The notes under the pieces: model-generated | What the model saw: only the letters and a program-made list of their open reading frames with translations | Databases searched by the model: none | What the model was told of the DNA's origin: nothing | Part shown: positions 995 to 38,158 of the stretch, in pieces | How positions within the stretch are numbered: position 1 is the first letter of the stretch | How the letters are laid out: every line of letters starts with the position of its first letter | Translations under genes and position numbers: made by a program | Assembly: GCA_963759365.1 (NCBI GenBank) | Contig: CAVWYX010000007.1 | Location: 29,422 to 93,421 of the forward strand | DNA: 64,000 bases | Reading direction: 5' to 3' | Source of the DNA: an uncultured Actinomycetes bacterium | GTDB lineage: Bacteria > Actinomycetota > Thermoleophilia > Gaiellales > Gaiellaceae

Positions 995-2104
995 CTACCC
1001 TGCAGCCGGTGCGCGAGCGCGCATTCGCCCATGGGCCAGGGGTGCCAAAGAGGGCGCGAATGCGCGCATCGTGCTGTCCCAGATGCTGTACCGAAATCTC
1101 GTCAGCGCAGCCAACATCGCTCGCGTTCCGTTAGGCAATTCTTCGAGCCGTTCGCGCACGACTTCGTAGTCGGAATCTTCCGCCAGGACTCGCTCTAGGT
1201 CTTTGCGCGCCTGCGCTTTCTTCCCTTGTGCGAGGTAGTTCCTCGCGCGCTCCGACAGCCCAAAGTGTCGGATCTCTGGCGCACGTGAGCGACTCTTGAG
1301 CGCTTCCTTGAACGCTTCGTGTGCACCGTCCGGGTAACCCTGCTCGCGGAGCGCGATCGCCCGATAGACGAGGAGGTGCGCTGCGTCGTCCTCGTTCGAC
1401 GCCATTGGTCAAGTCGACCACATCGTCGTAGCGGCCGGCCTGGGCATACAGCTCCGCCAGCGAGACCGCAGCGTAGGTCGTCGGCTCGAGTAGCTCGACG
1501 ACGTTGATCGCCTGGTCAACCTCGCCGTCCTCTTGATGAAGCTCTGCCAGCGCCAACCCGATGGCGTCGCGGTTAACAGGAAGCACCGCCGAGACGCCTG
1601 AGGCAATCGATAGCTCCAACCGTGTGAACAGGTACTTCGCCGCGAAGCGATCGTCAGCTGGGTTTTGCCCGGTGGCGAAGACCTCGCCGAGCAGGCGCTT
1701 AGCCTCTGGCTCTGTCCGGTCGACGCCGAGCATCATCAGCCCCGCGAGACTGTGCGACAGGACGCGGAAGTCAGCGTGCTCGTCGCCCACTTGCTTGATC
1801 GCCTGGGCGTCCTGCGCACGAACGGCTTTGTAGAGCTGCTTCTCGCCCCTCGGCGCGAACAGGCCGGGCTTCGGCGGAGCGGGCGGCGCTGCCGAAGCTG
1901 GTTCGGAGGCGCGTGACGTGCCGCTGACGCTCTTTTGGTAGTACACGCCGGGGACGCCAGTCCCGCCGATACCGTTCGTCGGCCGGACGAGTGGACGCTG
2001 TAGCGGGCGGGACCCGCGCCAACGCTCATCCCGACACCGGTCCTCGACAGGTTCAGGCGGACGCCTGGGACGAGCCGAATCGACTTCCGAGCGCGGAACC
2101 CCAA
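995..2104 (-). pseudogene. DUF4236-type N-terminus plus helical/TPR-like repeats; frame broken near 1980 and 1400
   Basis: MGFRARKSIRLVPGVRLNLSRTGVGMSVG (1736..2104 ORF) continues as IGGTGVPGVYYQKS in the 1131..2363 frame. It then continues as NEDDAAHLLVYRAIALREQGY in the 995..1405 frame. Confidence 0.5.
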
Positions 2105-2154
2105 CGGTCATTCCTTCCCGTACTGCTCGAAGCCGCGCGTCCCGCAGCGTCGAA

Positions 2155-2397
2155 CTAGCGCCTGCAAAAGTATGTCCGGCCGAGATACTTGACCCGCCTG
2201 TTGAAGCGAGCGGTTCTCTCCTCGGCGCTCGGGGAGACGCAGAGCAATCCACGCCAGCGGTAGCTCGCGTGGTCGCTCGGGCAGGTGTGGGCGCGGTGGC
2301 AGCCGTCGTTGTGCGCGCTTGCGGACGTCGTGCCGAAAGCGGCAAGGCTGAGCAAGCCTGCAATGGCGACGACGGTGACGCAGAGAACCCGAATCAT
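2155..2397 (-). CDS. small secreted Cys/His-rich protein
   Basis: 80 aa ORF with a hydrophobic signal-like N-terminus (VVAIAGLLSLAAFGTTSASA) followed by HNDGCHRAHTCPSDHASY. Confidence 0.55.
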   Translation of the reverse strand: MIRVLCVTVVAIAGLLSLAAFGTTSASAHNDGCHRAHTCPSDHASYRWRGLLCVSPSAEERTARFNRRVKYLGRTYFCRR

Positions 2398-2629
2398 CTA
2401 CTCCTCCTGAAGTGTCTTGCCGCTGGCGCCGCCAGAAGCGGAGCCTCTAAGTCGAGTCTAGGGTCGGAGGTGGCTTCGCAGCATCGCCCGTACGGGTAGA
2501 CGCAGCAGCACGAACGGGTGGCGCATCTAGGATCGGCGTGGTCGAATAGTGCGAGCACTCCCTCGCGCTCGCGTGCGCTCAGCGCCTGTCGCGACACACG
2601 ATAGTGCAGTGCCCACAACCAAACGAGGC

Positions 2630-3658
2630 TCATGGCCCGCAGCACGGCGTCCTCTTGAGGTTAGCTCTCTTCGCGACGATGTCCGCTGCGACCTCTTCCA
2701 GAGCGTCCCGGTCGAGTTCTTCTGCAGCCGCGGGCATGACCTTGGCCGTGGTCTTGGCGCGCAGCGTCGCCGTTCGCCTCCCACCCTCGAGTTGCGCCCG
2801 CTCGCCGGCGATTGCGCCAGGCCCCAGTTCTGCGACCACTTCTCCGTCAACGACGACCTCGAGTATGCCGTCGAGGACTAGAAACACGAGGTTCGTGTCG
2901 TCGGCAGAGTCGCCCTGTTCCACTAGCCGCTCGCCGACCGCCAGCTGTTGCGGCTTCGCCTTGCGGCCCGTTCCCATGATCTCGAGCGAGAGCTCTCGCT
3001 CGAGCGCCGTCTCGACTGCCGTGACAACGGCCGGGGAGTCTTCTCTTCCCCACGGCGTGTTCTGCTCGTGCGACTCGCGGTACCACTTGTCGAAGTCGAT
3101 CGCCGCGCTCTTCTGGACGAGCTTGCCGTCCTTGTCGTAGATCCAGTGCCGCGGGAACGAGCTCGCGCCGGCGAGCTCGTGCTCGGACGAGCCGTCGGCG
3201 TTGATCGTCAGCGCCAGTGTCGTCCATGCGATCGCCGAATTGATCTGGAAATACGGCTTGCCACGCACGGTCATCGGCGCAGGCATGCCCGTTCGTCCGC
3301 CGGCTGTCCGCGTGAAGCGCACGAAGCCGTCGCCGGCCTCCAGCTTCTGCATCGTCGGGAGCGCAACAGCGGCGACAGCGATCTCCTTGGGTCCGATTTT
3401 CAGGCGCGTGAGCCCGATCCGCCCTCGGCCTGCATGCCCCTGACCGACGATCTTGCCGTCCTCGACGTCGATCCAGCCCTTCAGCTCGTTCGCCTCGCGG
3501 AACATGTCGGCGCGGTGCATCGTCTCCATCGAGACGACGCGGTCGGGCGGCGGGTCGTCGTAGTGGGCGAGGCCCATGCTGAACGGCAGCTTCGGCATCC
3601 CCTCGACTGCCTCCGACGGGATCCAGGAGATGGACGTGACGGACGACTCGATCCGCAT
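2630..3658 (-). CDS. protein with C-terminal cyclic-nucleotide-binding-like domain
   Basis: Start MRIESSVTSISWIP (ATG complement at 3656-3658). The C-terminal part LVEQGDSADDTNLVFLVLDGILEVVVDGEVVAELGPGAIAGERAQL...RTATLRA looks like a cNMP-binding beta-roll. Confidence 0.6.
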   Translation of the reverse strand: MRIESSVTSISWIPSEAVEGMPKLPFSMGLAHYDDPPPDRVVSMETMHRADMFREANELKGWIDVEDGKIVGQGHAGRGRIGLTRLKIGPKEIAVAAVALPTMQKLEAGDGFVRFTRTAGGRTGMPAPMTVRGKPYFQINSAIAWTTLALTINADGSSEHELAGASSFPRHWIYDKDGKLVQKSAAIDFDKWYRESHEQNTPWGREDSPAVVTAVETALERELSLEIMGTGRKAKPQQLAVGERLVEQGDSADDTNLVFLVLDGILEVVVDGEVVAELGPGAIAGERAQLEGGRRTATLRAKTTAKVMPAAAEELDRDALEEVAADIVAKRANLKRTPCCGP

Positions 3659-3738
3659 TGTGGGCCCCTTTCGCGACTTGACCGGTCGCGTTGAGGGTGT
3701 GCCCCTACTTCGGCGCTTACAAGAGTTGTCGGCGAGGT

Positions 3739-4757
3739 TCAGACGTCGACGGTTGTCGCCGTTCGCGCATGGCGGATGAAGCTCGCGTCGTGACCGCGTT
3801 GATTCGCGCGCGCAAGCTCGTCCTCGTCGAGCGCGTCGACGCGCCGAAGTAGATCGAGCTCGTCTCGCAGGTGCGTCCGCATCATCTCCGGGCCGTCCGT
3901 CGCGATCGTGAACTTGACGCCGGCGTCGACGAACGAACGGAACGTGTCGCGGACCGCGTCCTCGTTCGCGAGCGCCTTCGTCAGCAGATTGGAGGTCGGG
4001 CAGATCTCGAGCACGATCTCGGCGTCTCGTAGCGCCGCCATCAGCTCCGGATCGTCGGCGGCGAGAATGCCGTGGCCGATGCGGTCCGGCCGAAGAACCT
4101 CGATGACCTCGCCGATCTCCTCGCGTCCGATGTTCGCCGCCTTCCTCGCCGACGTGGATCGTGACGCCGAGGCCGGCCGCTCGCGCCTCCTCGACCATCG
4201 GCGAGACCTGGGTGTAGTCGTAGCGGTCGCCGCCGCGGGCGCGGGCCGGCGATGTCGACGCCGACGATTCCGCGCGGCGCCCAGCGGATCGCCTTCTCGA
4301 CGATGATCGAGTTCAGCTCGGCGCTGAACGTCCGGTCCATCATCAGGATCAGTCCCGCGCGCACCTGCGGGTACTCGAGGCTCGCGCGGTCGAGCCCGCG
4401 GATCGCGGCGAGGATGATGTGGTCGAGGTCGCGCTCGCCGCCACGGTTTCGCTTCATCGGGTTGAAGCGGAGCTCGAGCGTTGTGATCCGCTGCGAGCGG
4501 TAGGCGCCGCCGATGGCCGCATGCACCGAGCGCTCGACGGCGGTCGGGCTCGACTGGATCAGCTCCGTCCAGTGGTAGATTTGGTCGAGCGCGTCGAGGT
4601 TCGCGACGCCGCGCGGGTCCGAGACGGTGACGAGGCGGTCGAACTCCCAGTAGTCCTTCACCGGCAGCGCGATGCCCTGCTCGTGCGCGAGGCTCCAGAG
4701 GATGTCGGAGGCAACCGAGCCGCCGAGGTGCGTATGCAGCTCGGCGAGCCCTTCCAT
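3739..4757 (-). pseudogene. add: adenosine deaminase, reading frame broken twice (about 4240 and 4135); possibly assembly indels
   Basis: The protein is spread over three frames. First MEGLAELHTHLGGS...GVDIAGP, then MVEEARAAGLGVTIHVGEEGG, then RIGHGILAADDPELMAALRDAEIVLEICPTSNLLT...TIATDGPEMM. Confidence 0.65.
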
Positions 4758-4855: not shown

Positions 4856-5252
4856 ATGGGAGGCGCTCAATTGGACTGGATAGGCAGGTCTCTGCTGCTG
4901 ATCGCCTGCCTGGGGATCGCAGCGCCGGCCTCTGCAGCGAACGGGCCGAGGTTCAAGCCCCGGCCGGGATTGACGCAGGCTCAGGCGGTCCGAAAGCTCG
5001 AGCAGAGGTTCAACCGGACGCCTGGCTTCTCCAACGCGCACTGCAGGTTGTTGAACGGGAACGCCCGCATCGGCTGGCGTCACACCTCGTGCATCGCCAC
5101 GGTCGTCTACCAAGGGATGCGCTACGGACTGAGGACCACCTACACGCCCGGTCTCCTGTTCTCGCCAGCGCACGGTCGTCGTCGTGGCGGGTCTCAGGAG
5201 ACAAGCCGGAACCGGCCCGTGGAAGCACGACATCTTCGTCTGTGCGCAGTAG
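4856..5252 (+). pseudogene. hypothetical secreted protein, probable frame break near 5150
   Basis: Signal-like N-terminus LLLIACLGIAAPASAANG. A natural-looking C-terminus RTVVVVAGLRRQAGTGPWKHDIFVCAQ plus stop (5250-5252) lies in another frame. Confidence 0.35.
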
Positions 5253-5346
5253 GGACGACGGCCGGGATTCTTTCCGGCGCCGCGCATTTGACACATTCAG
5301 CTCGACGGCCGAGAATCGCTCGGCTCATTCCGCGAAGGGAGGTCCG

Positions 5347-5949
5347 TGTGTCCTGGAACCTGAAGGGGAGCTACGTCGAGACGTGCTCGTGCGAGCTCAT
5401 GTGTCCGTGCAACCTGTCTTGGGACCACGGCGCGACGTACGACTTCTGTCGCGTCAGCTCGTCTTCAACATTCACGAAGGGGAGATCGAGGGCACGGATG
5501 TCAGCGGTCTCAAGGTCGCTGCGATCGCGGATACCCCGAAGGTCATGACCGAGGGCAACCGGCGACTCGGCATGTTCATCGACGACCAGGCGACGGACGA
5601 GCAAGCGGACAAGCTCACGGCCGTCTTCGGAGGCCAGCTCGGAGGACCTATGGGCGCCCTGGCCCCGCTCGTAGGCGAGGTCTTGGGCGTCGGGCGCGCG
5701 TCGATCGAGGTCGTGGACGACGGGCTGCGTCACGCCGTCCGCGTCGGAGACGCGATCGACTTCGAGATCGAGGACATCGTGCCGTTCGGGGTCGAGACTG
5801 GTGAGCCCGTTCGATTCAACGGCATTGCCCACCCGGTTGGGTCTGACCTGACGATGGCAGAGGCGACCCGCTCGCGGATCAATGCCTTCGGCATCGAGTA
5901 CGAGGGCAAGACGGGTCTCTCGAAGTCCGAGTTCTCCTGGGCTGCTTGA
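5347..5949 (+). pseudogene. DUF1326 family protein, one frame break near 5457
   Basis: VSWNLKGSYVETCSCELMCPCNLSWDHGATYDFCR continues as LVFNIHEGEIEGTDVSGLKVAAIADTPKVMTEGN... in the 5089..5949 frame. Confidence 0.6.
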
Positions 5950-5953
5950 GCGC

Positions 5954-6784
5954 TTGATCGCCTCGGCACCCGACCAGGCGGCTCCCATTGGAGGTCTGAC
6001 TCCGGCGTTCGCCGCCGCGCGAACGCGGCTCGGGCTCGTCGCTTTGCTCTTCGTGCTCGCCGGTGTCGGCTGGTGGTGGACGGTCGACCAGATGCAGGGC
6101 ATGGACGGTGGGCCGTGGACCGATCTCGGGACGCTCGCCTGGTTTGTCGGCGTATGGGTCGTGATGATGGCCGCGATGATGTTTCCGTCGGTATCGCCGA
6201 CGGTTGCGCTCTACTCGCGCATGACCAGGAGTCGAGTCCCGGTCGCACCACTGCTCTTCACCTCCGGCTATCTCGTAGCGTGGGCCGGCGTCGGGGTGCT
6301 CGCATTCGTGGTCGCGACCGCCGGCGGGGGCGTCTTCGGCGACGTGCTTGCATGGGACCGGGGTGGACGCTGGGTTGCAGGCGCGACCCTCGTCGTTGGC
6401 GCCGTCTACGAGCTGACGCCGCTCAAGGACGTGTGCCTGGGGAAGTGCCGCAGCCCGCTCGGCTTCTTGCTCGGGTCCTGGCGTGACGGCGCCGCGGGTG
6501 GGCTGCACATGGGTGTGAGACACGGCGCTTGGTGCATCGGCTGTTGTTGGGCACTGATGGCGTCGCTCTTCGCGCTCGGGGTGATGAGCATCGTCTGGAT
6601 GGCGTTCGTGGCTGGGCTCATCGCTTTCGAGAAGCTGATCCCGTGGCGCCGTGCCGCGACCTATGGGACGGCGGGCGTTCTGCTCGTGCTCGGCGTGCTC
6701 CTCATCGCGGCTCCCGACACGATCCCCGCGCTCACGATTCCCGGGAACGGTTCGATGTCTCAGATGAACCAGATGGGCGGATAG
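5954..6784 (+). CDS. DUF2182 family integral membrane protein (usual partner of DUF1326)
   Basis: WVVMMAAMMFPSVSPTVALY...YELTPLKDVCLGKCRSPLGFL...CIGCCWALMASLFALGVMS. The start (TTG 5954) is uncertain. Confidence 0.6.
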   Translation: MIASAPDQAAPIGGLTPAFAAARTRLGLVALLFVLAGVGWWWTVDQMQGMDGGPWTDLGTLAWFVGVWVVMMAAMMFPSVSPTVALYSRMTRSRVPVAPLLFTSGYLVAWAGVGVLAFVVATAGGGVFGDVLAWDRGGRWVAGATLVVGAVYELTPLKDVCLGKCRSPLGFLLGSWRDGAAGGLHMGVRHGAWCIGCCWALMASLFALGVMSIVWMAFVAGLIAFEKLIPWRRAATYGTAGVLLVLGVLLIAAPDTIPALTIPGNGSMSQMNQMGG

Positions 6785-9771: not shown

Positions 9772-10052
9772 GGCAGACGATCGGCGGGAGCGCAGCCATT
9801 CTGCCTGATGCGTTCGGCCGCTCTGCGAAAGCCTTCGCGTATCGCCCCTGTAGTCACAGGTCGGATGCGGAGTCGACCAGCGTCCAGGAATGTCCCCTGA
9901 GCCGTCGCGTGTGGGCGGCGTGGATAGGCTGGCGATCGTGGCCGAGGCGACCGCAACATGGTCGGCGCTGCGCCAGCGTTCACGAATGACGCCCGAGCAG
10001 GTCGTTTACGAGGTGCCCGGATGGGATCGGAATCTGACGCCGTGACAGCAAC

Positions 10053-10897: not shown

Positions 10898-11007
10898 GGG
10901 CTGCGCGAGCGTCCTCTCCCCCAGGTCTCGGTAGTTCAGGTATTACCGCTACTCCGTAGTTGGAGAGAGAACCCTCGCCTGGGCGAGTTTTGCGGAATGA
11001 CGCCCGA
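10898..11007 (+). repeat. J2: full junction L-M(v1)-H-R
   Basis: cgggctgcgcgagcgtcctctccc...ggtattaccgctactccgtagttggagagagaaccctcgcctgggcgagttttgcggaatgacgcccga. Confidence 0.9.
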
Positions 11008-11467: not shown

Positions 11468-11502
11468 GTCGGCTGGGCCAGTGTTCGGGAATGTCACCTG
11501 AG
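11468..11502 (+). repeat. J3: R-only junction
   Basis: gtcggctgggccagtgttcgggaatgtcacctgag. Confidence 0.9.
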
Positions 11503-11503
11503 T

Positions 11504-12016
11504 TTGCGGCAGTTAGCGTTAACGGCCGTGCGGGAGGGCTCGGGACAGCTTGTCCTTCGCGAGATCGAAGATCGTGATCTCGGCGTGCTGTTCGAGCACT
11601 CGAGGGATCGCGACGCTATACGGATGGCCGCGTTCACTTCGCCGGAGGCCGATGATCGAACGAGCTTCGAGCGACGGTGGGCGCGGCTGAGGAGCGACGG
11701 CTTTACGAGGAACAGGGTCGTCGAGATCGACGGTCGAGTTGTGGGTCACATTGCGAGCTTCGACTTGGAGGGTCACCGCGAGGTCACCTATTGGATCGGC
11801 CGTGAAGATTGGGGCCGCGGCATTGCCACGCGTGCCCTGCAAGAGTTCTTGCAGCTGGAGGCAACCCGTCCGCTTTACGCTCACGCTGCGAGCGACAACG
11901 CCGCGTCGATTCGTGTGTTGACGAAGTGCGGTTTCCTTATCGTGGGCGAGGGGCGCGAGTTCGCTCATGGGCGCAACGAGGAAACGGACGAGGTCGTCCT
12001 CCGACTCGATGCATGA
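11504..12016 (+). CDS. GNAT family N-acetyltransferase (copy 1; copy 2 at 36960)
   Basis: LVLREIEDRDLGVLFEH...YWIGREDWGRGIATRALQEFL. The start may be GTG 11528. Confidence 0.8.
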   Translation: MRQLALTAVREGSGQLVLREIEDRDLGVLFEHSRDRDAIRMAAFTSPEADDRTSFERRWARLRSDGFTRNRVVEIDGRVVGHIASFDLEGHREVTYWIGREDWGRGIATRALQEFLQLEATRPLYAHAASDNAASIRVLTKCGFLIVGEGREFAHGRNEETDEVVLRLDA

Positions 12017-12025
12017 CCCCAACTG

Positions 12026-12062
12026 CCCTCGGCTGCGCCAGTGTTCGCGAATGTTCCCTGAG
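12026..12062 (+). repeat. J4: R-only junction
   Basis: ccctcggctgcgccagtgttcgcgaatgttccctgag. Confidence 0.85.
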
Positions 12063-12849: not shown

Positions 12850-12951
12850 CTGAGCGAGCCTCCTCTCCCCTGAGGTAGTCGGGTATTACCGCTACTCAGT
12901 AGTTGAAGAGGGAACCCTCGCCTGGGCCAGTGTTCCGGAATGACCCCCGAG
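12850..12951 (+). repeat. J5: full junction L-M(v1)-H-R
   Basis: ctgagcgagcctcctctcccctgaggtagtcgggtattaccgctactcagtagttgaagagggaaccctcgcctgggccagtgttccggaatgacccccgag. Confidence 0.9.
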
Positions 12952-12972
12952 CGGGGACGCTTGGTGGCCCGA

Positions 12973-13497
12973 TTAGCTTCCCCGCGTTTCCGGGCGAATC
13001 GGCAGCATCAGTGAGCAATAGCCGTTGATCAGGGCGTAGCCGCTGTCGGTGTAGAGACGGAGAGCGGGGTCGTTGTCTTCCTCGGTCTGCACGACTAGGC
13101 GGAGTGCGCCCGACGCGATTGCAGCCGCTTGGACGGAGCTGAGAAGGGCACGACCGACTCCACGACGACGGTGCGTCGGCAGGACGAAAAGGTCTCTGAT
13201 CTGCCAGAAGTGGGCGAGCCGCAAGGATGCCGGTACTTCCATCGTGATCGCGAAGCCGACGAACCTCCCACTGTCTTCGGCGACGAACGCGCGTAGCTGG
13301 GTGCTGAGGTTCTGTTCCAGCCAACCTATTGCCTGGGAGGAGTAGGAAGCCTCGCCGTAGTGGGCGCGATACTTGTCGAAGAGCTCGGCGAGTGCTTCGA
13401 TTTCGGAGCGTGTCGGTGCGGTCAGAGTCCGAACTGAGACCGGCTCGCTGGTGGCCGAAGGACTGGCATGGGTGTTCTGACTCACGGCTCTCTCCAC
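12973..13497 (-). CDS. GNAT family N-acetyltransferase (copy 1; frameshifted copy at 21237)
   Basis: 174 aa; FVLPTHRRRGVGRALLSSVQAAAIASGALRLVVQTEEDNDPALRLYTDSGY. Confidence 0.8.
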   Translation of the reverse strand: MERAVSQNTHASPSATSEPVSVRTLTAPTRSEIEALAELFDKYRAHYGEASYSSQAIGWLEQNLSTQLRAFVAEDSGRFVGFAITMEVPASLRLAHFWQIRDLFVLPTHRRRGVGRALLSSVQAAAIASGALRLVVQTEEDNDPALRLYTDSGYALINGYCSLMLPIRPETRGS

Positions 13498-13524
13498 GAA
13501 AACGGTATCGCCAAGCGGCAGTAA

Positions 13525-13633
13525 CCTCGCCTGGGCCAGCGTCCTCTCACCTGAAGGCCCTTCCGGTATTACCGATACTCAGTAGTTACACGCTGGATGC
13601 GGGGTCGGCCAGGGTCCGCGATGTCACCCGACG
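13525..13633 (+). repeat. J6: L-M(v1) then variant spacer and R tail
   Basis: cctcgcctgggccagcgtcctctcacctgaaggcccttccggtattaccgatactcagtagtt|acacgctggatgcggggtcggccagggtccgcgatgtcacccgacg. Confidence 0.85.
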
Positions 13634-14437
13634 ATCGCCGTCGACAAGTGGGTTGCGTGTTCGCGTATGTGTGCCTCGGCGCTTTCCCAGCTCTCAAGGT
13701 GACCTTCGGCGAGCAGTCGGGCATACGGCGGTTTGCCAAGAAAGCCGAGGTCGTGAATGAGCTGTGCCTCGCGGCCGCAGCGTTCCACAGCGACATCCAA
13801 GATGTCGGCGGGGAAAATCGCGGCCCCGTAGCCTTCGCGGAAGACATGGATGCGACGCCTTGTCTCGACCAGGCTGAGCTGGGAAGCGGGCATCAGAGGG
13901 ACGAAGCTGAGTAACGCCCAGGCGAGATCCCACGAGCGTCGGCCCGGGCCAGCGAGGTCCCAGTCAATGAACGTCCATCCGTCGGCCCCGCGAACGAGGT
14001 TCCAGGGCGCGAGATCGTTGTGACAGAGCACCTCGCTAGGCCCGCGCGGGTCGCGACCCCCGGTCTGACCACGGCTGGCCGTCCAGCAACCGAAAGCCTG
14101 TGACAGCATCGTGGTAGCGGCGAATCAGAGCGGAGATTTCGGCAAGCGCCTGGTCGTCAGCCACAAGGTCGAAGTGGTCTGGCCACACGACCGCTCCATC
14201 GATGTAAGTGAGGATCTCGCGGCCCCGCTCGTCGATCCCTCGTACGCGAGGCGCCCCCTCGAACCCGCTCGACTCCAGGTGCCGCAGCAGTTCGTGGACA
14301 CACGGTGTCCACGGTCCGGTGGGGTGTCGCACGGTCGAACCGACCTTCACGACCTCCGCGCTCATATTCCCGCCTGAGAGCTGCTCCTCCACACAGACAT
14401 CCTGCCGCTCAAACCAGCGCCGCGCGACCACGCCCAA
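13624..14437 (-). pseudogene. aminoglycoside/choline-kinase-type phosphotransferase (APH fold), frame break about 14040-14105
   Basis: The N-part ORF is 14036..14437 and the C-part ORF is 13624..14109. The C-part carries [13 protein letters not shown] and IDWDLAG catalytic motifs. Confidence 0.7.
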
Positions 14438-14457
14438 ACGCCTCCGATGGGATCTCT

Positions 14458-14563
14458 GGGCTGCGCGAGCCTCCTCTCCCCGTTGTCAGTAGTCGGGTGT
14501 TACCGCTACTCAGTAGTTGGAAAGAGAACCCTCGGCTGGGCCAGTGACTCGGACAGGTCGACG
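14458..14563 (+). repeat. J7: L-M(v1)-H with degenerate R
   Basis: gggctgcgcgagcctcctctccccgttgtcagtagtcgggtgttaccgctactcagtagttggaaagagaaccctcggctgggccagtgactcggacaggtcgacg. Confidence 0.8.
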
Positions 14564-19462: not shown

Positions 19463-19520
19463 CGTCTGAGCGAGCGTCTTCTCACCTGAGGTAGTCGGGT
19501 ATTACCGCTACTCAGTAGTC
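19463..19520 (+). repeat. J10: L-M(v1), no H; only a weak R-like stretch about 19596-19635
   Basis: cgtctgagcgagcgtcttctcacctgaggtagtcgggtattaccgctactcagtagtc|acgtgg. Confidence 0.8.
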
Positions 19521-19638
19521 ACGTGGCGAACGCCGCAACGGTCTCCGCCTGCCGGAGACCCATTCAGTCGGCGACGTTCGAACCAAGCGCCTTCACCGCC
19601 TGGCTGGGGGCAGTCTGCCGACGAGATAATGCGGAGCA

Positions 19639-20019
19639 GTGTACGTCGAGGAGCTCGAGGGAAACGTTCTTGGCTCGTCGGGAGATGACTTCGTCATCGT
19701 CCAGTGGAAGGCGGACGTCGGCGAGCATTGGATCGCGCCGCTTCACATTCATCACCATGACGATGAGGCGTGGTATGTGCTCTCCGGGACGCTCGGCTTC
19801 CGCCTCGGTGACGCTGAGATCCAGGCCCACAGTGGGGGCGCTGTTCTGGCTCGGCACGGCACCCCGCATACCTTCTGGAACGCTGGCGAGACCGAGGCTC
19901 AGTACCTACTCGTGATGACGCCGCGAATCGCTGAACTGGTCGAACAGATCCACCAACCCGGTGCCGACGTTGGCGCGATCTTCGCGTCGCACGCGTCAGA
20001 GATCCTCGCGCGTGAGTAG
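19639..20019 (+). CDS. cupin domain protein
   Basis: 126 aa; HIHHHDDEAWYVLSGTLGFRLGDAEIQAHSGGAVLARHGTPHTFWN. Confidence 0.75.
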   Translation: MYVEELEGNVLGSSGDDFVIVQWKADVGEHWIAPLHIHHHDDEAWYVLSGTLGFRLGDAEIQAHSGGAVLARHGTPHTFWNAGETEAQYLLVMTPRIAELVEQIHQPGADVGAIFASHASEILARE

Positions 20020-20023
20020 TCCA

Positions 20024-20128
20024 CTTCTCGCCTGAGCGAGGTCATCCGCCGCTTCAGCACAGTCCGGTAATCACAACTCTGTAGTCGCTGGCTCAACTCC
20101 GGCCCGTTTGAGGGACGTCTCGGCGGAG
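20024..20128 (+). repeat. J11: L-M(v2) with degenerate R
   Basis: cttctcgcctgagcgaggtcatccgccgcttcagcacagtccggtaatcacaactctgtagtc|gctggctcaactccggcccgtttgagggacgtctcggcgga. Confidence 0.7.
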
Positions 20129-20177
20129 GATCGGCTACCTCTGGGCAGAAACTCGCCGTGTGCTCTCCGCATGGCTC

Positions 20178-20536
20178 ATGTTCGACCGGTTCGCGAAGGC
20201 ACTGAGGGTCGCTGTCCGCGACGAGGGCTTGGTACAGATCCTCGGGCGGGATTCCTCCTCGTCGCCGTTGGCACCATCACCTACACCACGAGCCAGGACT
20301 GGAGTCTTGTTGACGGCTTCTACTTCGCCGTCGCGACGCTGACGACATCGAGCATCGCCGACCCGGAGCTCACGATCACGGGCGCGCCGATCAAGATCTT
20401 CACCGTCTTCTACATCTTGGTCGGCATCGGCATCCTGGTCGAACTCGCTCGACAACTCGGCTTCGCCTACGTCCAGGTACGGCGCGAAGAGAAAGAGGCG
20501 AAAGCCGCCAAAGCAGAACACACAGCCGAGACGTAG
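20178..20536 (+). pseudogene. two-TM ion-channel (Ion_trans_2-like) protein, probable frame break about 20245-20252, degenerate filter
   Basis: MFDRFAKALRVAVRDEGLVQILG (frame of 20160 ORF) continues as GFLLVAVGTITYTTSQDWSLVDGFYFAVATLTTSSIAD... (20108 frame). The filter reads TTSSIAD instead of TTVGYGD. Confidence 0.5.
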
Positions 20537-20566
20537 CCGAGTTTCCTGCCGCAGCACTGCGGGCTT

Positions 20567-20650
20567 TCGGGGATAAACGCAACTCTGTAGTCACGCCGAG
20601 GACCCTCGCCTGGAAAAATTCTCTTGGCAGAGTGTCGAATCCGGGGGCAG
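20567..20650 (+). repeat. J12: M(v2)-H-like with interrupted, degenerate R
   Basis: tcggggataaacgcaactctgtagtc|acgccgaggaccctcgcctgg aaaaattctctt ggcagagtgtcgaatccggggg. Confidence 0.65.
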
Positions 20651-20712
20651 CCGTTCGTCTAAGAGGTGAAGAGGCGGCCGGAGGAGGCCGCCGGGAGACA
20701 AGGGAGGCACGG

Positions 20713-21105
20713 ATGACGCGGTACCTGATCTCGTTCGATGACGGCTGGATGACCTTCCCCGAGGAGGAGTTGCCCGACGTGGCCAAGGCAGGGATCGAGG
20801 TGGTCAAGGAGGCCCAAGACGCCGGAGTGTGGGTTTACGGCGCCGGACTGGAAAGCCAGAGGGCGAGCATCGTGGCCACCGACGGGATCGTCACCGACGG
20901 CCCCTTCCCGGAGACAAAGGAGGTCATCGGCGGGTTCTCGATAGTCGATGTGCCCTCACGCGAGGAGGCGCTGGAGTGGGCTGCCAAGATCGCCGTCGCC
21001 TGCCGCTGCGCGCAAGAGGTACGGATGATCCTGCCCGACCCGCCAGGGCTAGAGCAAGATGTCCCTCGGGCGCGCTCGGCGCATCAACCTGAACCTGCCC
21101 GCTAA
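20713..21105 (+). CDS. YciI-like (YCII/DGPF domain) protein
   Basis: ATG 20713 after AGGGAGG; MTRYLISFDDGWMTFPEEELPDVAKAG...TDGPFPETKEVIGGFSIVDVPSREEALEWA. Confidence 0.8.
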   Translation: MTRYLISFDDGWMTFPEEELPDVAKAGIEVVKEAQDAGVWVYGAGLESQRASIVATDGIVTDGPFPETKEVIGGFSIVDVPSREEALEWAAKIAVACRCAQEVRMILPDPPGLEQDVPRARSAHQPEPAR

Positions 21106-21137
21106 GGCGGATCGTAGTCGCGGTTTCGGCAGAACCT

Positions 21138-21215
21138 GGGTAGTCCGGTATCACCGCTACTCAGTAGTTGGAGAGGGAACCCTCGCCTGGGCCAGGTTCC
21201 GGAATGACCCCCGAG
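21138..21215 (+). repeat. J13: M(v1)-H-R
   Basis: gggtagtccggtatcaccgctactcagtagttggagagggaaccctcgcctgggccaggttccggaatgacccccgag. Confidence 0.85.
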
Positions 21216-21236
21216 CGGGGACGCTCGGTGGCCCGA

Positions 21237-21760
21237 TTAGCTTCCCCGCGTTTCCGGGCGAATCGGCAGCATCAGTGAGCAATAGCCGTTGATCAGGGCG
21301 TAGCCGCTGTCGGTGTAGAGACGGAGAGCGGGGTCGTTGTCTTCCTCGGTCTGCACGACTAGGCGGAGTGCGCCCGACGCGATTGCAGCCGATCGGACGG
21401 AGCTGAGAAGGGCACGACCGACTCCACGACGACGGTGCGTCGGCAGGACGAAAAGGTCTCTGATCTCCCAGAAGTGCGCGAGCCGCAAGGATGCCGGTAC
21501 TTCCATCGCGATCGCGAAGCCGACGAACCTCCCACTGCTTCGGCGACGAACGCGCGTAGGTGCGTGCTGAGGTTCTGTTCCAGCCAACCTATCGCCTGGG
21601 AGGAGTAGGAAGCCTCGCCGTAGTGGGCGCGATACTTGTCGAAGAGCTCGGCGAGTGCTTCGATTTCGCTGCGTGTCGGTGCGGTCAGAGTCCGAACTGA
21701 GACCGGCTCGCCGGTGGCTGAAGGACTGGGATGGGTCTTCTGACTCACGGCTCTCTCCAC
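21237..21760 (-). pseudogene. GNAT acetyltransferase, near-identical copy of 12973..13497 with a 1-nt deletion
   Basis: Collinear with 12973-13497. ctgtcttcggcg in copy 1 reads ctgcttcggcg here (about 21535), which splits the ORF into 21237..21587 and 21359..21838. Confidence 0.75.
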
Positions 21761-21787
21761 GAAAACGGTATCGCCAAGCGGCAGTAA

Positions 21788-21913
21788 CCTCGCCTGGGCC
21801 AGCGTTCTCTCACCTGAAGGCCCTTCCGGTATTACCACTACTCAGTAGTTGGAGAAAGAACCCTCGCTGCAGAGAACCCTCGCCTGCGCCAGCGTTCGGG
21901 AATGTCACTCGGG
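21788..21913 (+). repeat. J14: full L-M(v1)-H-R with internal H duplication
   Basis: cctcgcctgggccagcgttctctcacctgaaggcccttccggtattaccactactcagtagttggagaaagaaccctcgc tgc agagaaccctcgcctgcgccagcgttcgggaatgtcactcggg. Confidence 0.9.
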
Positions 21914-24197: not shown

Positions 24198-24346
24198 GGC
24201 TCGCCTGCGCGAGCGTCCTCTCCCCGGGTTCGGTTAGTCGGGTATTACCGCTACTCCGTAGTGACAGAGGCGACATCCGCGGTGACAGAGGCGACATCCG
24301 GAGAGTCGTCGCTTGGGTGCCCGAGTGTGCGGGAATGTCTCTTGAG
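24198..24346 (+). repeat. J16: L-M(v1), 2 x ~21-nt tandem insert, R
   Basis: ggctcgcctgcgcgagcgtcctctccccgggttcggttagtcgggtattaccgctactccgtagt|gacagaggcgacatccgcg gtgacagaggcgacatccgga gagtcgtcgcttgggtgcccgagtgtgcgggaatgtctcttgag. Confidence 0.85.
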
Positions 24347-25995: not shown

Positions 25996-26107
25996 CCCTC
26001 GCGTGTGCGAGCGTACTATCGCTTGGGAGCTAGTCGGGGATAAAGACAACTCTGTAGTTGGAGAGAGAACCCTCGCCTGCGCCAGCGTTCAGGAATGTTC
26101 CCCGGAG
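25996..26107 (+). repeat. J17: full L-M(v2)-H-R
   Basis: ccctcgcgtgtgcgagcgtactatcgcttgggagctagtcggggataaagacaactctgtagttggagagagaaccctcgcctgcgccagcgttcaggaatgttccccggag. Confidence 0.9.
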
Positions 26108-26130
26108 ATCGCGCTCCTAAGATAGAGGGG

Positions 26131-26532
26131 GTGTCGCTGCCCGTGACGCTTCCCCTCATCGACCACTTGGCCTTGCGGGTACGTGACGTCAGACGCAGCC
26201 GCACCTTCTACGAGCGGGCCCTCGAGCCGTTCGGAGTGAAGGTGGTGGAGAGCTCGCAGGGGCCTGGGTTTGCCATCGAGGGCGGTGGAGACTTCTGGAT
26301 CGGAGAAGGAGAACCCCCGGCCGCGCCCGTTCATGTGGCCTTCGCCGCAGCAGACCGAGCCACCGTTGACAGGTTCCACCGCGCCGCTGTCGAAGCCGGC
26401 GGCCGCGACAACGGCGCGCCGGGCCTTCGCCCGCATTACCACGCCGGGTATTACGCAGCGTTCGTCATTGACCCGGACGGGAACAACGTCGAAGCGGTCT
26501 TCCACGGAGACCGCCAGATGCCGGCCGCGTGA
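26131..26532 (+). CDS. VOC/glyoxalase family protein
   Basis: GTG 26131 after GAGGGG; IDHLALRVRDVRRSRTFYERALEPFG...YAAFVIDPDGNNVEAVFH. Confidence 0.8.
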   Translation: MSLPVTLPLIDHLALRVRDVRRSRTFYERALEPFGVKVVESSQGPGFAIEGGGDFWIGEGEPPAAPVHVAFAAADRATVDRFHRAAVEAGGRDNGAPGLRPHYHAGYYAAFVIDPDGNNVEAVFHGDRQMPAA

Positions 26533-26646
26533 CGCTCGCTTGGGCGAGCGTACTGTCGCCAGAGAGAGCAGTCGGGGATAAAGACAACTCTGTAGTTGGG
26601 CGGAGGACTCTCGCCTGCGCGAGTGTCCCGGAATGTCGCCGTGAGG
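26533..26646 (+). repeat. J18: full L-M(v2)-H-R with covarying stem
   Basis: cgctcgcttgggcgagcgtactgtcgccagagagagcagtcggggataaagacaactctgtagttgggcggaggactctcgcctgcgcgagtgtcccggaatgtcgccgtgagg. Confidence 0.85.
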
Positions 26647-29260: not shown

Positions 29261-29360
29261 GGCGAGCATCCTCTCGCCTGAAGACTGTTCCGGTATAGAC
29301 GCTACTCAGTAGTTGGAGAGAGAACCCTCGCCTGCGCGAGTGTGCGGGAAGTATCTCGAG
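29261..29360 (+). repeat. J22: full L-M(v1)-H-R, 35 nt after J21 (empty cassette between)
   Basis: ggcgagcatcctctcgcctgaagactgttccggtatagacgctactcagtagttggagagagaaccctcgcctgcgcgagtgtgcgggaagtatctcgag. Confidence 0.85.
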
Positions 29361-29451: not shown

Positions 29452-29668
29452 GAGGCGCCCCCTCGAACCCGCTCGACTCCAGGTGCCGCAGCAGTTCGTG
29501 GACACACGGTGTCCACGGTCCGGTGGGGCGTCGCACGGTCGAACCGACCTTCACGACCTCCGCGCTCATATTCCCGCCTGAGAGTTGCTCCTCCACACAG
29601 ACATCCTGACGCTCAAACCAGCGCGGCGCGAACACGCCCAAACGCCTCCGATGGGATCTCTGGGCGCG
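29452..29668 (-). pseudogene. N-terminal fragment of the APH-like phosphotransferase (duplicate of 14236-14460)
   Basis: About 215 nt nearly identical to 14236-14460. It encodes MSAEVVKVGSTVRRPTGPWTPCVHELLRHLESSGFEGAP and then stops being homologous. Confidence 0.7.
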
Positions 29669-31722: not shown

Positions 31723-31898
31723 GGGGAGGCTGCAAGTAGCCGGACGGTGCGTTAGGTTCCGCCAGCGCCGTTCCCGTCGCTTGGAGCGCCACCGGCGCAG
31801 TCGCATCGAAGAGCTAGCTGGTCGAGAGACCTCGGCATCGATTGATGCGAAGCGATGACTTCGCCTCGCGGCGGGAGTCGTACGTCGGTAGGAGGTTG

Positions 31899-32519
31899 AT
31901 GCTGATAACGCCGCCCACGATCACGCCAGTCCGCGTTGCCGACCTGCTCGCCGAGGGCGAGCGGGTGCCGGTCTACGTGCACGTCATCGACCATCCCGAT
32001 GCGCGCGTGCTGGTCGACACCGGCATCACGGAGCTGCACCCGGCGGTAGCCGACCTCGATCCCCGCCTCCGTCCACTGAGCAAGCAGGACTTCGACCTCG
32101 CGGGCATCGACATCGTCGTCAACACACACCTGCACTTCGACCACTGCGGCGGCAACCACCTGTTCGCCGGACGGCCGATCTACGTTCAGCGGCAGGAGCT
32201 CGAGGACGCGCGCACGGAGGACGACTACACCATTCGCGAGTGGGTCGAGGCGCCCGGCGTGCGTTACGAGCCGGTCGACGGCGAGCTCGAGCTGCTTCCG
32301 GGGCTCCGGCTCGTCCCAGCGCCGGGCCACACACGCGGCATGCAGGTGGTCGTCGTCGAGACTGGCGGGCGTCCGGTCGTCGTCGGCGGTGACGTGGCGG
32401 TTTGGTTCGGCGAGCTCGACGAGCCGCACACTGAAGGCCAGCTGCGGGTGCGCGCGCTCGAGCCCGAGCTCGTCTGGCTCGCGCACGAGCACGAGCCCTG
32501 GCGGCCGCGCACCACGTAA
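31899..32519 (+). CDS. MBL-fold metallo-hydrolase (lactonase-like)
   Basis: ATG 31899 after GGTAGGAGG; VVNTHLHFDHCGGN and PAPGHTRG motifs. Confidence 0.8.
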   Translation: MLITPPTITPVRVADLLAEGERVPVYVHVIDHPDARVLVDTGITELHPAVADLDPRLRPLSKQDFDLAGIDIVVNTHLHFDHCGGNHLFAGRPIYVQRQELEDARTEDDYTIREWVEAPGVRYEPVDGELELLPGLRLVPAPGHTRGMQVVVVETGGRPVVVGGDVAVWFGELDEPHTEGQLRVRALEPELVWLAHEHEPWRPRTT

Positions 32520-32646
32520 GGCGCGGCACAGTGCATACGGCCCACGATGACCTCGAACACAACGATCGGGACGGCTGATCGCTGACAGAAGCGAACGGGC
32601 AACGAAATCGAGCCTCCGTCGCACTAGGTTCGCCCGCGGGCATTGT

Positions 32647-32685
32647 GCGTTGCGGTGCGCCAGCGTTCGGGAATGTCACCTGAGG
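32647..32685 (+). repeat. J27: R-only junction
   Basis: gcgttgcggtgcgccagcgttcgggaatgtcacctgagg. Confidence 0.9.
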
Positions 32686-32744
32686 CAACTGACCGACCAC
32701 GCACGACTTAGACTCCTTGGGCGCAGATTGGATATGTTCGCCGA

Positions 32745-33209
32745 ATGAAGACGTTCAACCTCAACAGCGACGAGTGGGATGGGACGAGGGATCGCGACGG
32801 CTGGCGCGTCAAGGGCGCGCTTGTCGGCCAACGCGTCGGCGGTGAGCTAATAGGCGCGACCATGTCCGAAGTCGGGCCTGGCGACAGGCTCTGGCCCTAC
32901 CACACGCACTACCTGAACGAGGAATGGGTGATCGTGCTCGGCGGCGAGCCGACGCTGCGCACGCCCGAAGGTGAGCGTGTGTTGAAGGAGGGTGACGTCG
33001 TCTGCTTTCCGCGAGGCAAGGACGGTGCGCATCAGATCATCAACCGAACAGACTCGCCCATTCGGGTACTCATGCTCTCCTCGATGATCCGCGGCGAGAT
33101 CATTGAGTACCTCGACGCCGGGAAGGTTCTCGCCAAGGGCGTCGAGGACGAAGACATCATGTTCGCGAGGCCCGGACCCACGGTCGAGTTCTGGGAGGGC
33201 GAGGACTAG
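32745..33209 (+). CDS. cupin domain protein
   Basis: 154 aa; LWPYHTHYLNEEWVIVLGGEPTLRTPEGERVLKEGDVVCFPRGKDGAHQIIN. Confidence 0.8.
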   Translation: MKTFNLNSDEWDGTRDRDGWRVKGALVGQRVGGELIGATMSEVGPGDRLWPYHTHYLNEEWVIVLGGEPTLRTPEGERVLKEGDVVCFPRGKDGAHQIINRTDSPIRVLMLSSMIRGEIIEYLDAGKVLAKGVEDEDIMFARPGPTVEFWEGED

Positions 33210-33268
33210 CTCCGGGCCACGCTCTCGATTAACCGGGCAGCAGAGACTCCGCCGACCCAAGGTCATCC

Positions 33269-35709: not shown

Positions 35710-36363
35710 TCATTCGTCGTCCTGCTCGGTGGTGGCGGTTGCATACTGCGGGCGTCCGGTGGGCCGATAGACCTGGATCGTTACGCCCTTCGAGTCGGCT
35801 CTCGAGTCGACCAGGTCAAGCGCAATGTCCGGGCCGGCCTCGGGGAACAGCCGCGTGCCCTGGCCGACGACCACGGGGACGATGAGCAGGTTGATCTCGT
35901 CGACCAGGTCGTTTTCGAGCAGCCATCGGATCAGGGCACCGCTGCCGTGCACCTGCAGCTCACCCGCCGGCTTGGCTTTCAGCTCGCCGATTGCCGCCGC
36001 GAGGTCACCGGAGAGGAGGGTCGTGTTCGCCCAGCGCGGTTCGGTGAGCGTGGTCGATGCGAGGTACTTGGGCTTCGTGTTCAAGGCAGCTGCGATCTGG
36101 TGGTTGCCCGGATCTTCCAGCGCGGCGCGAGCCCGCTCCTCTGCGCCCCAGTAGCCGGCGAAGAGCTCGTAGGTCCGCCGGCCGAACAGGAACGCGTCGG
36201 CGCGCTGGTAGGTCTGGTTGATGAACGTCATGGTCTCGTTGTCGAACACCCCCATGGCCCATCCGCCGCGCTCGAATCCGTTCCTGCGGTCCTCATCCGA
36301 CGCGCCGCCGTTTCCCTGCATCACTCCATCGACGGTGACTTGCGTCATGGTGGTCAGTTTCAT
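35710..36363 (-). CDS. RibD_C / dihydrofolate-reductase-like family protein
   Basis: 217 aa; MKLTTMTQVTVDGVMQG...FGRRTYELFAGYWG...LQVHGSGALIRWLLENDLVDEINLLIVPVVVGQGTRLF. Confidence 0.85.
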   Translation of the reverse strand: MKLTTMTQVTVDGVMQGNGGASDEDRRNGFERGGWAMGVFDNETMTFINQTYQRADAFLFGRRTYELFAGYWGAEERARAALEDPGNHQIAAALNTKPKYLASTTLTEPRWANTTLLSGDLAAAIGELKAKPAGELQVHGSGALIRWLLENDLVDEINLLIVPVVVGQGTRLFPEAGPDIALDLVDSRADSKGVTIQVYRPTGRPQYATATTEQDDE

Positions 36364-36516
36364 GGGTTCGTCCTTTCTCTCGTGCTGGTCTTTCTCGTTA
36401 TGACCGCACCGAGGCGCGGAGCTCATCGGTCGCAGCAGAGTCTTCCGTCCGGCCGAATCGAGCCTGAGGATCTGGAAGACGGAGCTGGCAGAGTCGTGGT
36501 CAACAAAGGAGGCGTC

Positions 36517-36921
36517 GTGTCGGGCCCGTTCATCTTCATCGCCACCAACCGTCTTAAGCCCGGGAAGCTCGCCGACGAAAGGAGGCGAGTGCCAGGCCTC
36601 GTCGACTTCATCGAAGCGAACGAGCCGCGGCTGATCGCGTTCAACGAGTACGTCAACGAGGATGGCACCGAAGTCGGGGTTGTCCAAGTTCACGCGGACG
36701 CCGACTCGATGCGGTTACACATGGAGATCATTGCCGAGCGTGCCGCCGCCGCGTACGCCGAAACGGTCGAGGCGACCACGAGCATCCAGGTTTTCGGCAC
36801 GCCGAGTGACGCCGTCCTCAGAATGCTCGAGCGTCAGGCTGGCGCCGGTGTCCCGCTGTTGGTCAAGCCCCACCACCTCGGTGGGTTCACACGCCCACAC
36901 CGTTGGGAACCGGTGACGTAA
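36517..36921 (+). CDS. ferredoxin-like (ABM-type) protein of unknown function
   Basis: GTG 36517 after AAAGGAGG; SGPFIFIATNRLKPGKLADERRRVPGLVDFIEANEPRLIAFNEYVNEDGTEVGVVQVHADADSM. Confidence 0.6.
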   Translation: MSGPFIFIATNRLKPGKLADERRRVPGLVDFIEANEPRLIAFNEYVNEDGTEVGVVQVHADADSMRLHMEIIAERAAAAYAETVEATTSIQVFGTPSDAVLRMLERQAGAGVPLLVKPHHLGGFTRPHRWEPVT

Positions 36922-36958
36922 TCGTCGGCTGGGCCAGTGTTCGGGAATGTCACCTGAG
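36922..36958 (+). repeat. J31: R-only junction (consensus-like)
   Basis: tcgtcggctgggccagtgttcgggaatgtcacctgag. Confidence 0.95.
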
Positions 36959-36959
36959 T

Positions 36960-37472
36960 TTGCGGCAGTTAGCGTTAACGGCCGTGCGGGAGGGTTCGGG
37001 ACAGCTTGTCCTTCGCGAGATCGAAGATCGTGATCTCGGCGTGCTGTTCGAGCACTCGAGGGATCGCGACGCTATACGGATGGCCGCGTTCACTTCGCCG
37101 GAGGCCGATGATCGAGCGAGCTTCGAGCGACGGTGGGCGCGGCTGAGGAGCGACGGCTCTACGACGAACAGGGTCGTCGAGATCGACGGTCGAGTTGTGG
37201 GTCACATTGCGAGCTTCGACTTGGAGGGTCACCGCGAGGTCACCTATTGGATCGGCCGTGAAGATTGGGGCCGCGGCATTGCCACGCGTGCCCTACAAGA
37301 GTTCTTGCAGCTGGAGGCAACCCGTCCGCTTTACGCTCATGCTGCGAGCGACAACGCCGCGTCGATTCGTGTGTTGACGAAGTGCGGTTTCCTTATCGTG
37401 GGCGAGGGCCGCGAGTTCGCTCATGGGCGCAACGAGGAAACGGACGAGGTCGTGCTCCGACTCGATGCATGA
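36960..37472 (+). CDS. GNAT family N-acetyltransferase (copy 2 of 11504..12016)
   Basis: Collinear with 11504-12016 at a constant offset of 25456, with roughly ten substitutions by eye. Confidence 0.8.
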   Translation: MRQLALTAVREGSGQLVLREIEDRDLGVLFEHSRDRDAIRMAAFTSPEADDRASFERRWARLRSDGSTTNRVVEIDGRVVGHIASFDLEGHREVTYWIGREDWGRGIATRALQEFLQLEATRPLYAHAASDNAASIRVLTKCGFLIVGEGREFAHGRNEETDEVVLRLDA

Positions 37473-37482
37473 CCCCAACTGT

Positions 37483-37607
37483 CCTCGGCTGGACGAGCGT
37501 GCCGTCTCTCGAGCGCAGTCGGGGGTAAACGCAACTCTGTAGTCACTGGCGCGACTATCGGCAGCGACCCCGTCGCTTGGGCCAGCGTTCGGGAATGACG
37601 CCTGAGG
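37483..37607 (+). repeat. J32: L-M(v2), spacer, R
   Basis: cctcggctg|gacgagcgtgccgtctctcgagcgcagtcgggggtaaacgcaactctgtagtc|actggcgcgactatcggcagcgaccccgtcgcttgggccagcgttcgggaatgacgcctgagg. Confidence 0.85.
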
Positions 37608-37636
37608 GGGCTCTCCCGTCGCGAAAGTTCAACCCG

Positions 37637-38083: not shown

Positions 38084-38158
38084 ACTAGTCCTGTTGTCGC
38101 TTCGACACGCCCACCGGACGAGCGCACAATTGGTGCGGCGAGGTCTTGGACCATCACC

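Follow-up and report, generated by a model that had tools for sequence, protein, structure and literature searches.

Swappable single-gene cassettes of a soil actinobacterium in a 34-kb array with an integron-like layout, without integron-type sites or a nearby integrase

Among the systems that accumulate single-gene cassettes and reorder them, only integrons are well understood. Actinobacteria essentially lack them; no complete integron is found there, and the record consists of one In0 and a few CALINs (PMC9024848). Here we describe an array in a soil actinobacterium that spans 34 kb and is made up of swappable single-gene cassettes. It has an integron-like layout without integron-type sites or a nearby integrase. 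Like sedentary integrons and CALINs, the array is a long series of mostly single-gene accessory cassettes with co-oriented sites and with duplicates in varied contexts, and it holds the same cargo families (GNAT, glyoxalase, cupin and others). In contrast to integrons, its sites are defined by sequence, either as sites of ~35 nt or as a module (M) of ~30 nt, and are not structured imperfect palindromes. It has two types of breakpoint, no R''/R' boxes and no IntI, and its host phylum is essentially without integrons.

Several other systems share part of this layout. In IS200/IS605 elements and PATEs, as in the array, the ends are asymmetric, a palindrome lies 10–13 nt from the cut, the layout is mirror-imaged and strand-specific, and classical terminal inverted repeats and target duplications are not needed. 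The cut and the palindrome of IS608 are mirror-imaged between its left and right ends. The array differs from IS200/IS605 in that TnpA/TnpB were not found, its palindromes show no covariation, its cargo consists of ordinary genes, its units stand in arrays, and mostly the core occurs alone. REPs, which with RAYT form the REP/BIME type of system, carry a GTAG head next to a short palindrome, and M likewise has GTAG beside a short palindrome. However, REPs are dispersed genome-wide, often as inverted pairs, and do not bound swappable cassettes, whereas the sites of the array are clustered, co-oriented and bound mobile units, and RAYT was not detected.

The sfx sites of the shufflon, recombined by Rci, are asymmetric, with one arm conserved, the other barely so, and the crossover at the edge; the sites of the array are alike in these respects. 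The sfx sites are inverted and drive inversions inside one gene, whereas those of the array are in direct orientation and lie between whole genes. Xer-dependent modules (pdif modules, IMEX) and SCC are recombinase-less cassettes with short flanking sites and an enzyme encoded elsewhere, as would be the case for the array. The array sites, however, have no 11-6-11 dif-like layout, and pdif sites alternate in orientation. Reading the consensus of the core against the 28-nt dif, we find ATGTCA as the sole common feature; the arms of the core are not inverted repeats and the crossover lies outside the would-be centre. SCC units are much larger than the cassettes of the array and use a single target gene.

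Organization and content of the array

The window, which is the whole 64-kb stretch of DNA analysed here, has a G+C content of 66% and contains genes typical of Actinobacteria, e.g. an F420H2-dependent quinone reductase and AlkZ (Pfam). The array occupies positions 9842–43700 on the plus strand, as read directly from the repeat families D1–D4, the core listing, the module and gene map and the array ends. The core (C) site is present in ~27 copies and the M module in ~21, every one of them on the plus strand, and the ~33 units mostly contain one gene each. The sequence of the core is ctcGccTGgGCCAG-Y-GTTCGGGAATGTC-a-CCtGAg. That of M is GGTAGTCGGGTATTACCGCTACTCMGTAGT, and M often has the module L (TGCGCGAGCGTCCTCTCC...) before it and the module H (TGGAGAGAGAACCCTCGCC) and a core after it. 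The core and M copies of the window form one bounded block between housekeeping genes, and no copy of either lies in the 30 kb of chromosome flanking the array. The flanks encode a rhomboid protease, a copper chaperone, exonuclease VII, glycerate kinase, a ubiE-type methyltransferase and proline dehydrogenase.

At the left end of the array (9842–9894, plus strand), a degenerate M (gcgtatcgcccctGTAGTC) is followed by a variant of H (H2) and then by the first core. At the right end (43674–43700, plus strand), the last M reads ATAGTCGGGTATTACCGCTGCTCCGTAGT^CACCGAG, and ordinary chromosomal genes lie beyond. We notice that two cores near the left end are only 96 bp apart (9880–9976), which looks like an empty, ORF-less cassette.

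The cargo genes, located on both strands, encode GNATs, cupins, glyoxalases, SnoaL, SRPBCC, methyltransferases, alpha/beta hydrolases and RibD_C, together with YCII, metallo-beta-lactamase-fold, LanC-like and TetR proteins. This is typical accessory-cassette content. In the region 13624–14461, an APH-like phosphotransferase fragment of 161 aa matches the C-terminal part of the Pfam model alone, and the 214-nt segment adjoining it has a 97.7% identical duplicate inside another unit (29452–29665), which suggests remnants of decayed cassettes. Two distinct RibD_C genes of the minus strand (35710–36693 and 40257–40967) have a block of 150 nt in common in their upstream regions (36324–36474 and 40864–41013, 90% identity). 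This block may be a common promoter or leader carried by the cassettes.

Breakpoints at the core and M sites

A duplicated GNAT cassette had been singled out in the initial annotation as the marker of a boundary at the end of M, and the duplication is real: positions 12869–13587 and 21135–21850 share 96.7% identity over 719 nt with 3 gaps (self-BLAST). The MAFFT alignment of the pair shows near-identity through GNAT, L and M to ...ACTCAGTAGTT (13587 and 21850) and random-level identity directly beyond, where copy 1 continues with ACACGCTGGATGCGG and copy 2 with GGAGAAAGAACCCTCGC. The abrupt stop at GTAGT and the divergent continuations are exactly those that the annotation had described, and because the break is sharp, a gradual decay of identity does not describe it. 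The left starts given there for the duplicate, 12951 and 21215, were placed ~47 nt too far right. The true left edge is the previous GTAGTT (12904 and 21169), and the duplicated unit consists of H-core-GNAT-L-M, from GTAGT^ to GTAGT^. The M upstream of the unit is also ~90% identical between the copies, and with such similarity ordinary homologous recombination that crosses over within M would mimic a cut at GTAGT^.

Copy 1 (12904–13587, plus strand) comprises H (12904–12922), a first core-type junction (12922^12923), the core, the GNAT gene and a second core-type junction (13531^13532), followed by L-M (13532–13586, plus strand), which ends in GTAGT^T. Its GNAT gene (12973–13497, minus strand) is intact and encodes 174 aa (Pfam Acetyltransf_1, 1.4e-16). 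Copy 2 (21169–21850, plus strand) has the same architecture with a broken GNAT ORF. The frame-breaking 1-nt deletion, previously noticed near 21535, is present in the assembled sequence at 21537/21538 and splits the ORF into 21237–21587 and 21359–21838. A second 1-nt deletion is located in the core of copy 2 (21195/21196), and each of the two may be true or a sequencing error.

Behind copy 1 (13588–13640, plus strand), an H2 variant (ACACGCTGGATGCGGGGTCGGCC), found also at 9856 and 27936, precedes a degenerate core (CAGGGTCCGCGATGTCACCCGA). Behind copy 2 (21851–21906, plus strand), the standard H (GGAGAAAGAACCCTCGC) comes first, its tail is in part repeated in tandem (TGCAGAGAACCCTCGCC), and a perfect core stands next. 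The motif ACTCAGTAGT, with at most one mismatch, has 23 matches against 1.0 expected, and none of 100 shuffles reaches 23. We also observed short tandem duplications right after M junctions, namely two copies of GACAGAGGCGACATCCG after 24262 (24263–24300) and two copies of the H tail (AGAGAACCCTCGC) after 21850 (21851–21887). These duplications may be recombination scars.

By scanning one genome per GTDB species with the exact core pattern, we obtained at least 119 loci, mostly from Gaiellaceae, Thermoleophilia and unclassified Actinomycetota soil MAGs; single exact matches in unrelated phyla may be due to chance. Dozens of loci have 3–8 co-oriented cores inside 8 kb, and core arrays occur in many MAGs of Thermoleophilia, Gaiellaceae and other Actinomycetota. 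OY970171.1 and CAVYYY010000001.1 are examples of MAGs with arrays. Most arrays of other genomes contain cores alone, without M. A scan of metagenomes for M yielded 70 soil contigs. Across 340 core sites from the window and the at least 119 genome loci, ~35 nt are conserved, and nothing outside them.

Pooled from all loci, 89 non-redundant M copies were compared together with their downstream sequences. The downstream DNA is diverse, and the conserved block ends exactly at GTAGT, after which T follows in 44 copies, C in 35, G in 7 and A in 3. Among these copies, L upstream and a core downstream are present or absent in all four possible combinations, and near-identical L-M modules of 57 nt are joined to many different downstream sequences. 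In the window, about 15 units span from core to M. The comparison of duplicates and of M copies indicates that the GTAGT stop is a genuine, recurrent recombination breakpoint and no peculiarity of one duplicate.

The sequences after M had been sorted into two classes, H on the one hand and (T/C)AC followed by unrelated sequence on the other. The second class is heterogeneous and consists in part of diverged H. The sequences at 13588, 27936 and 9856 have YACACGCYGGATGCGGRGTCGRCC in common, followed by a core or a degenerate core, and align with H variants elsewhere, e.g. CAGCGGCAGGACGCCCGGCTGGGCCAG; the sequence after M at 20592 is H-like as well. Among the 89 M copies, a weak H-box-like motif (yac.g....GA..c) follows the junction even where no core lies downstream.

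On the basis of these comparisons, we distinguish two breakpoints. J_C is located at CTCGCC^TGSGCCAG, with the conserved core YGTTCGGGAATGTCaCCYGAG downstream of it, and J_M is located directly 3' of the M module (...GGTATTACCGCTACTCMGTAGT^). Two junction points per full element, at the TG of the core and at the 3' end of M, had been suspected from the window, and they are supported by the duplicate pairs and by the linkage of site polymorphisms. In order to map J_C, homologous cassettes with unrelated far flanks were compared, and the linkage of polymorphic site positions was determined in small sets of 23 and 9 pairs. From position -9 (TG) rightwards, the site agrees with the downstream cassette. 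At the polymorphic position -7, the agreement in these 23 and 9 pairs is 0.78 with the downstream cassette and 0.33 with the upstream one, against 0.39 at random. The linkage pattern therefore places the crossover at CTCGCC^TG, at a fixed left edge and not spread along the homology, so that a cassette would read 5'-TGSGCSAG YGTTCGGGAATGTCaCCYGAG ... gene ... CTCGCC-3'. A second duplicated GNAT cassette of the window, which extends from core to core (11468–12035 and 36924–37491, both plus strand, 98.4% identity), agrees with this position of J_C. Its right break directly follows CTCGGCTG, and the next sequence is a core in copy 1 and L-M in copy 2.

J_M is seen in other genomes as well. The loci L139 and L180 share 97% identity as far as GTAGT^ and have nothing in common beyond. 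In the window, three consecutive cassettes (19520–21168, plus strand) are bounded by M junctions alone, namely a cupin cassette (19520–20085), an ion-channel-like cassette (20086–20591) and a YCII cassette (20592–21168). The YCII cassette recurs in L158 and L176, with an M type upstream that differs from that in the window, and the cassette with its M is joined to different downstream DNA in the window and in L158. In L127, the GNAT cassette comes directly after an M, without H or core. Taken together, these comparisons show that the breakpoints are fixed and that the two sites are directional and sequence-defined, with the conserved block downstream of J_C and upstream of J_M and with a short palindrome 10–13 nt away from each breakpoint.

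The ATG of the core shows no clear enrichment as a common start codon (23% versus 17% and 15% in the other frames), and the sites are not enriched as terminators or promoters. Intrinsic-terminator-like flags were raised at two sites only, with no overall enrichment. At these two sites, on the minus strand (10974–10987 and 29327–29340), the small J_C inverted repeat CTCGC-N4-GCGAG, with the H complement (GGTTCTCTCT) next to it on its 3' side, gives a weak terminator-like score. Rfam returned no family either with the gathering thresholds or with E<=5, and tRNAs were not found.

Possible mechanism and the search for a recombinase

The best explanation, to which we give an even chance, is that the units belong to a chromosomal cassette array on which an enzyme encoded elsewhere acts in a site-specific manner, breaking and joining the DNA at two short, sequence-defined sites and so assembling the array and reordering its cassettes. 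From the sites, breakpoints, linkage, cargo and spread documented here, we infer excision and integration as the process, together with a dedicated recombinase. At J_C, ~28 conserved bases (TGSGCCAG YGTTCGGGAATGTC aCCYGAG) would travel with the downstream cassette, and the upstream cassette would keep CTCGCC only. At J_M, the conserved block M, often with L before it, would travel with the upstream cassette. A cassette cut out from between a pair of like sites would take one reconstituted site with it and could be inserted again at any site of that type. Such excision and re-entry would result in a uniform orientation of the sites, in duplicates in new contexts and in the same cassettes beside different neighbours in other species. 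The mirror-image layouts of J_C and J_M are unusual for a single simple recombinase, and the failure to find a recombinase of any kind in the window or beside arrays speaks against this explanation, as does the fact that neither circular nor empty-site products were seen.

The array flanks contain housekeeping genes alone (Pfam), and no recombinase was detected in Pfam scans of 60 ORFs of the window and 10 cluster representatives, or by flank clustering of the array loci. A search for tyrosine recombinases in ~1.25 Mb of array loci, by tblastn with IntI1 and XerD and with a tyrosine-recombinase profile, returned L122 alone. In this soil contig of 1.3 kb, an L-M junction lies ~100 nt from a tyrosine recombinase gene. 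The protein has 261 aa compared with 341 aa in its relatives, its N-terminal domain is seemingly missing, and the gene abuts a tmRNA-like gene. We rejected it as the enzyme of the array. It is a member of a conserved Xis+Int family in islands adjacent to tmRNA/smpB, and because five loci of this family carry no arrays, its association with the array is incidental. L122 appears to hold a decayed tmRNA-island integrase into which array material was inserted, or up to which it was deleted.

An alternative, which we think rather unlikely, is that the units are single-strand cargo elements of the HUH type, IS200/IS605-like or PATE-like. The core would be the left end (cut, ~10 nt, palindrome) and M the right end (palindrome, ~12 nt, cut after GTAGT), and each unit would insert 3' of a short target sequence with which the preceding unit ends, so that head-to-tail arrays on one strand would result. 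The palindrome TTCGGG-N7-CCYGAG begins 10 nt after J_C, and CGGTA-T-TACCG lies 12–13 nt before J_M, so that cut and palindrome stand in mirror-image order at J_C and J_M, as they do at the ends of IS608. The strictly uniform strand orientation of the sites, the ~15 window units from core to M and the near-identical 57-nt L-M modules on many downstream sequences also fit such elements, which do not require a terminal duplication. However, neither palindrome shows compensatory changes, as judged from 479 core sites for TTCGGG-N7-CCYGAG and from the L-M-H alignment, and most arrays elsewhere have cores and no M. GC skew and replication-strand bias give no signal linked to site orientation. A tblastn search for Y1 transposases, with IS200 TnpA and RAYT queries against the window and 189 loci, gave no match, which is a weak test.

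We regard it as unlikely that there is no dedicated enzyme, and that the core and L-M-H are dispersed REP- or MITE-like repeats at which homologous recombination after DNA uptake shuffles the cassettes. Here L-M-H would be a small inverted-repeat element between repeated CTCGCCTGSGCC. L139 has a perfect 13-bp inverted repeat (AGCGTCCTCTCCC and GGGAGAGGACGCT) around M, with degraded versions elsewhere, and L-M-H lies between direct repeats of the left half of the core; both fit this explanation, as do the failed search for a recombinase and M copies whose similarity would suffice for recombination. The break falls after GTAGTT, just where the conserved block ends, as would be seen at the edge of any repeat. 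Nevertheless, the crossover falls at the extreme left edge of the 35-nt core and not along it, and for RecA-dependent exchange a homology of 30–35 nt is short. The repeats stand in a cluster and in one orientation, not dispersed, and the conservation of the site sequence over many lineages at the species and order levels implies a binding protein. Read in terms of J_C, L-M-H would be an ORF-less mini-unit of ~85 nt between two J_C-type junctions. The direct repeats of CTCGCCTGSGCC that flank it are equally explained by the target duplication of a MITE or by a small ORF-less cassette.

The array is not an integron, even though it has the integron-like trait of co-oriented sites between short, mostly single-gene cassettes in varying contexts. 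The initial annotation had compared GTAG/TTGGAG with the integron R' box and doubted the match; the doubt was justified, with no RYYYAAC partner and no integrase nearby. No pair RYYYAAC...GTTRRRY at a distance of 40–140 nt exists in the array on either strand (one outside it, versus 1.4 by chance), no CTCCAAC partner lies upstream of GTTGGAG, and no distal inverted partner of the core was found among 335 sites. Since most arrays contain the 35-nt core alone, often ~25 nt from the preceding stop codon, there is no room for an attC.

RNAalifold found no consensus fold in 27 copies of L-M-H. In a hairpin model of L-M-H, 70% of the cells are paired compared with ~42% in slid controls, a level reached by 61 of 500 shuffles, and compensatory changes are not enriched, so that the hairpin look of L-M-H has no covariation support. 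Among 253 non-redundant cassettes, 99 ORFs are on the strand of the sites and 115 on the opposite strand. Because gene orientation is random, the array follows no shared-promoter logic.

A highly diverged integron array without integrase, i.e. a CALIN with L-M-H as attC and GTAG/TTGGAG as R' box, is therefore very improbable in a phylum without complete integrons (PMC9024848), despite its resemblance to sedentary integrons in layout and cargo, the fit of GTTGGAG to 6 of the 7 positions of GTTRRRY, the partial complementarity of L and H in the window copies, and the fact that CALINs lack IntI by definition, so that the lack of IntI or another tyrosine recombinase near the arrays does not by itself exclude one.

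Shared cassettes and the accessory-gene pool

Site-specific breakage and joining at J_C and J_M would move cassettes between genomes as well as within them. Many cassettes of the window occur with 88–98% nucleotide identity in arrays of other species-level MAGs, beside different neighbours, and the similarity ends at the sites. Examples are a RibD_C cassette (40243–41013), two glyoxalase cassettes (26070–26551 and 37578–38127), a cupin cassette (32656–33256) and a metallo-beta-lactamase-fold cassette (31803–32687). These matches, along with the duplicates, show that cassettes are reused within the window and between genomes. Non-redundant cassettes have a median length of 690 bp and are 84% covered by ORFs. 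The core pattern is absent from IMG/VR, and the 13 matches of the M pattern there are unrelated low-GC phage coding DNA, which gives no case of phage carriage. No plasmid match was found.

In the literature that we searched by site sequence and by topic, we found no description of this system. The layout of the array is of a known kind, and its sites, the two breakpoints, the free orientation of the genes and the host group are new. The chances are balanced that it represents an undescribed cassette platform, independent of integrons, in Thermoleophilia and related soil Actinomycetota, with asymmetric two-breakpoint sites, no rule for gene orientation, movement between species, and a recombinase or transposase encoded elsewhere, whose family has so far had no known connection with cassette capture. 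The chance that the enzyme behind the array makes it a new class is substantial. An array system of this kind, analogous to integrons and with other sites, would mean that cassette platforms have evolved more than once and that abundant, mostly uncultured soil bacteria hold a large mobile pool of accessory genes, in which we find acetyltransferases, glyoxalase/bleomycin-resistance-type proteins, a phosphotransferase fragment and metallo-beta-lactamase-fold proteins. Such a system would also point to a new recombinase with a short, well-defined target, which could be hunted by phylogenetic profiling.

The commonest recurring family of the array loci consists of large proteins with adenylate-cyclase, AAA_16 and TPR domains, which we observed in 31 loci, including L127 (2025–5471). 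In the window, a DUF1326 + PpoB2 copper-chaperone pair (5089–6784) is located outside the array and has no flanking cores. An 80% identical copy of this pair lies between two cores in L061 (958–2461) as a two-gene cassette. The two locations of the pair, outside and inside an array, may be a snapshot of cassette recruitment. In L032, an Acidimicrobiia MAG, a variant core (GTTCGTAAATGTCATCYGAGG) forms its own co-oriented array (1590–3827), which suggests that lineage-specific versions of the site exist outside Thermoleophilia.
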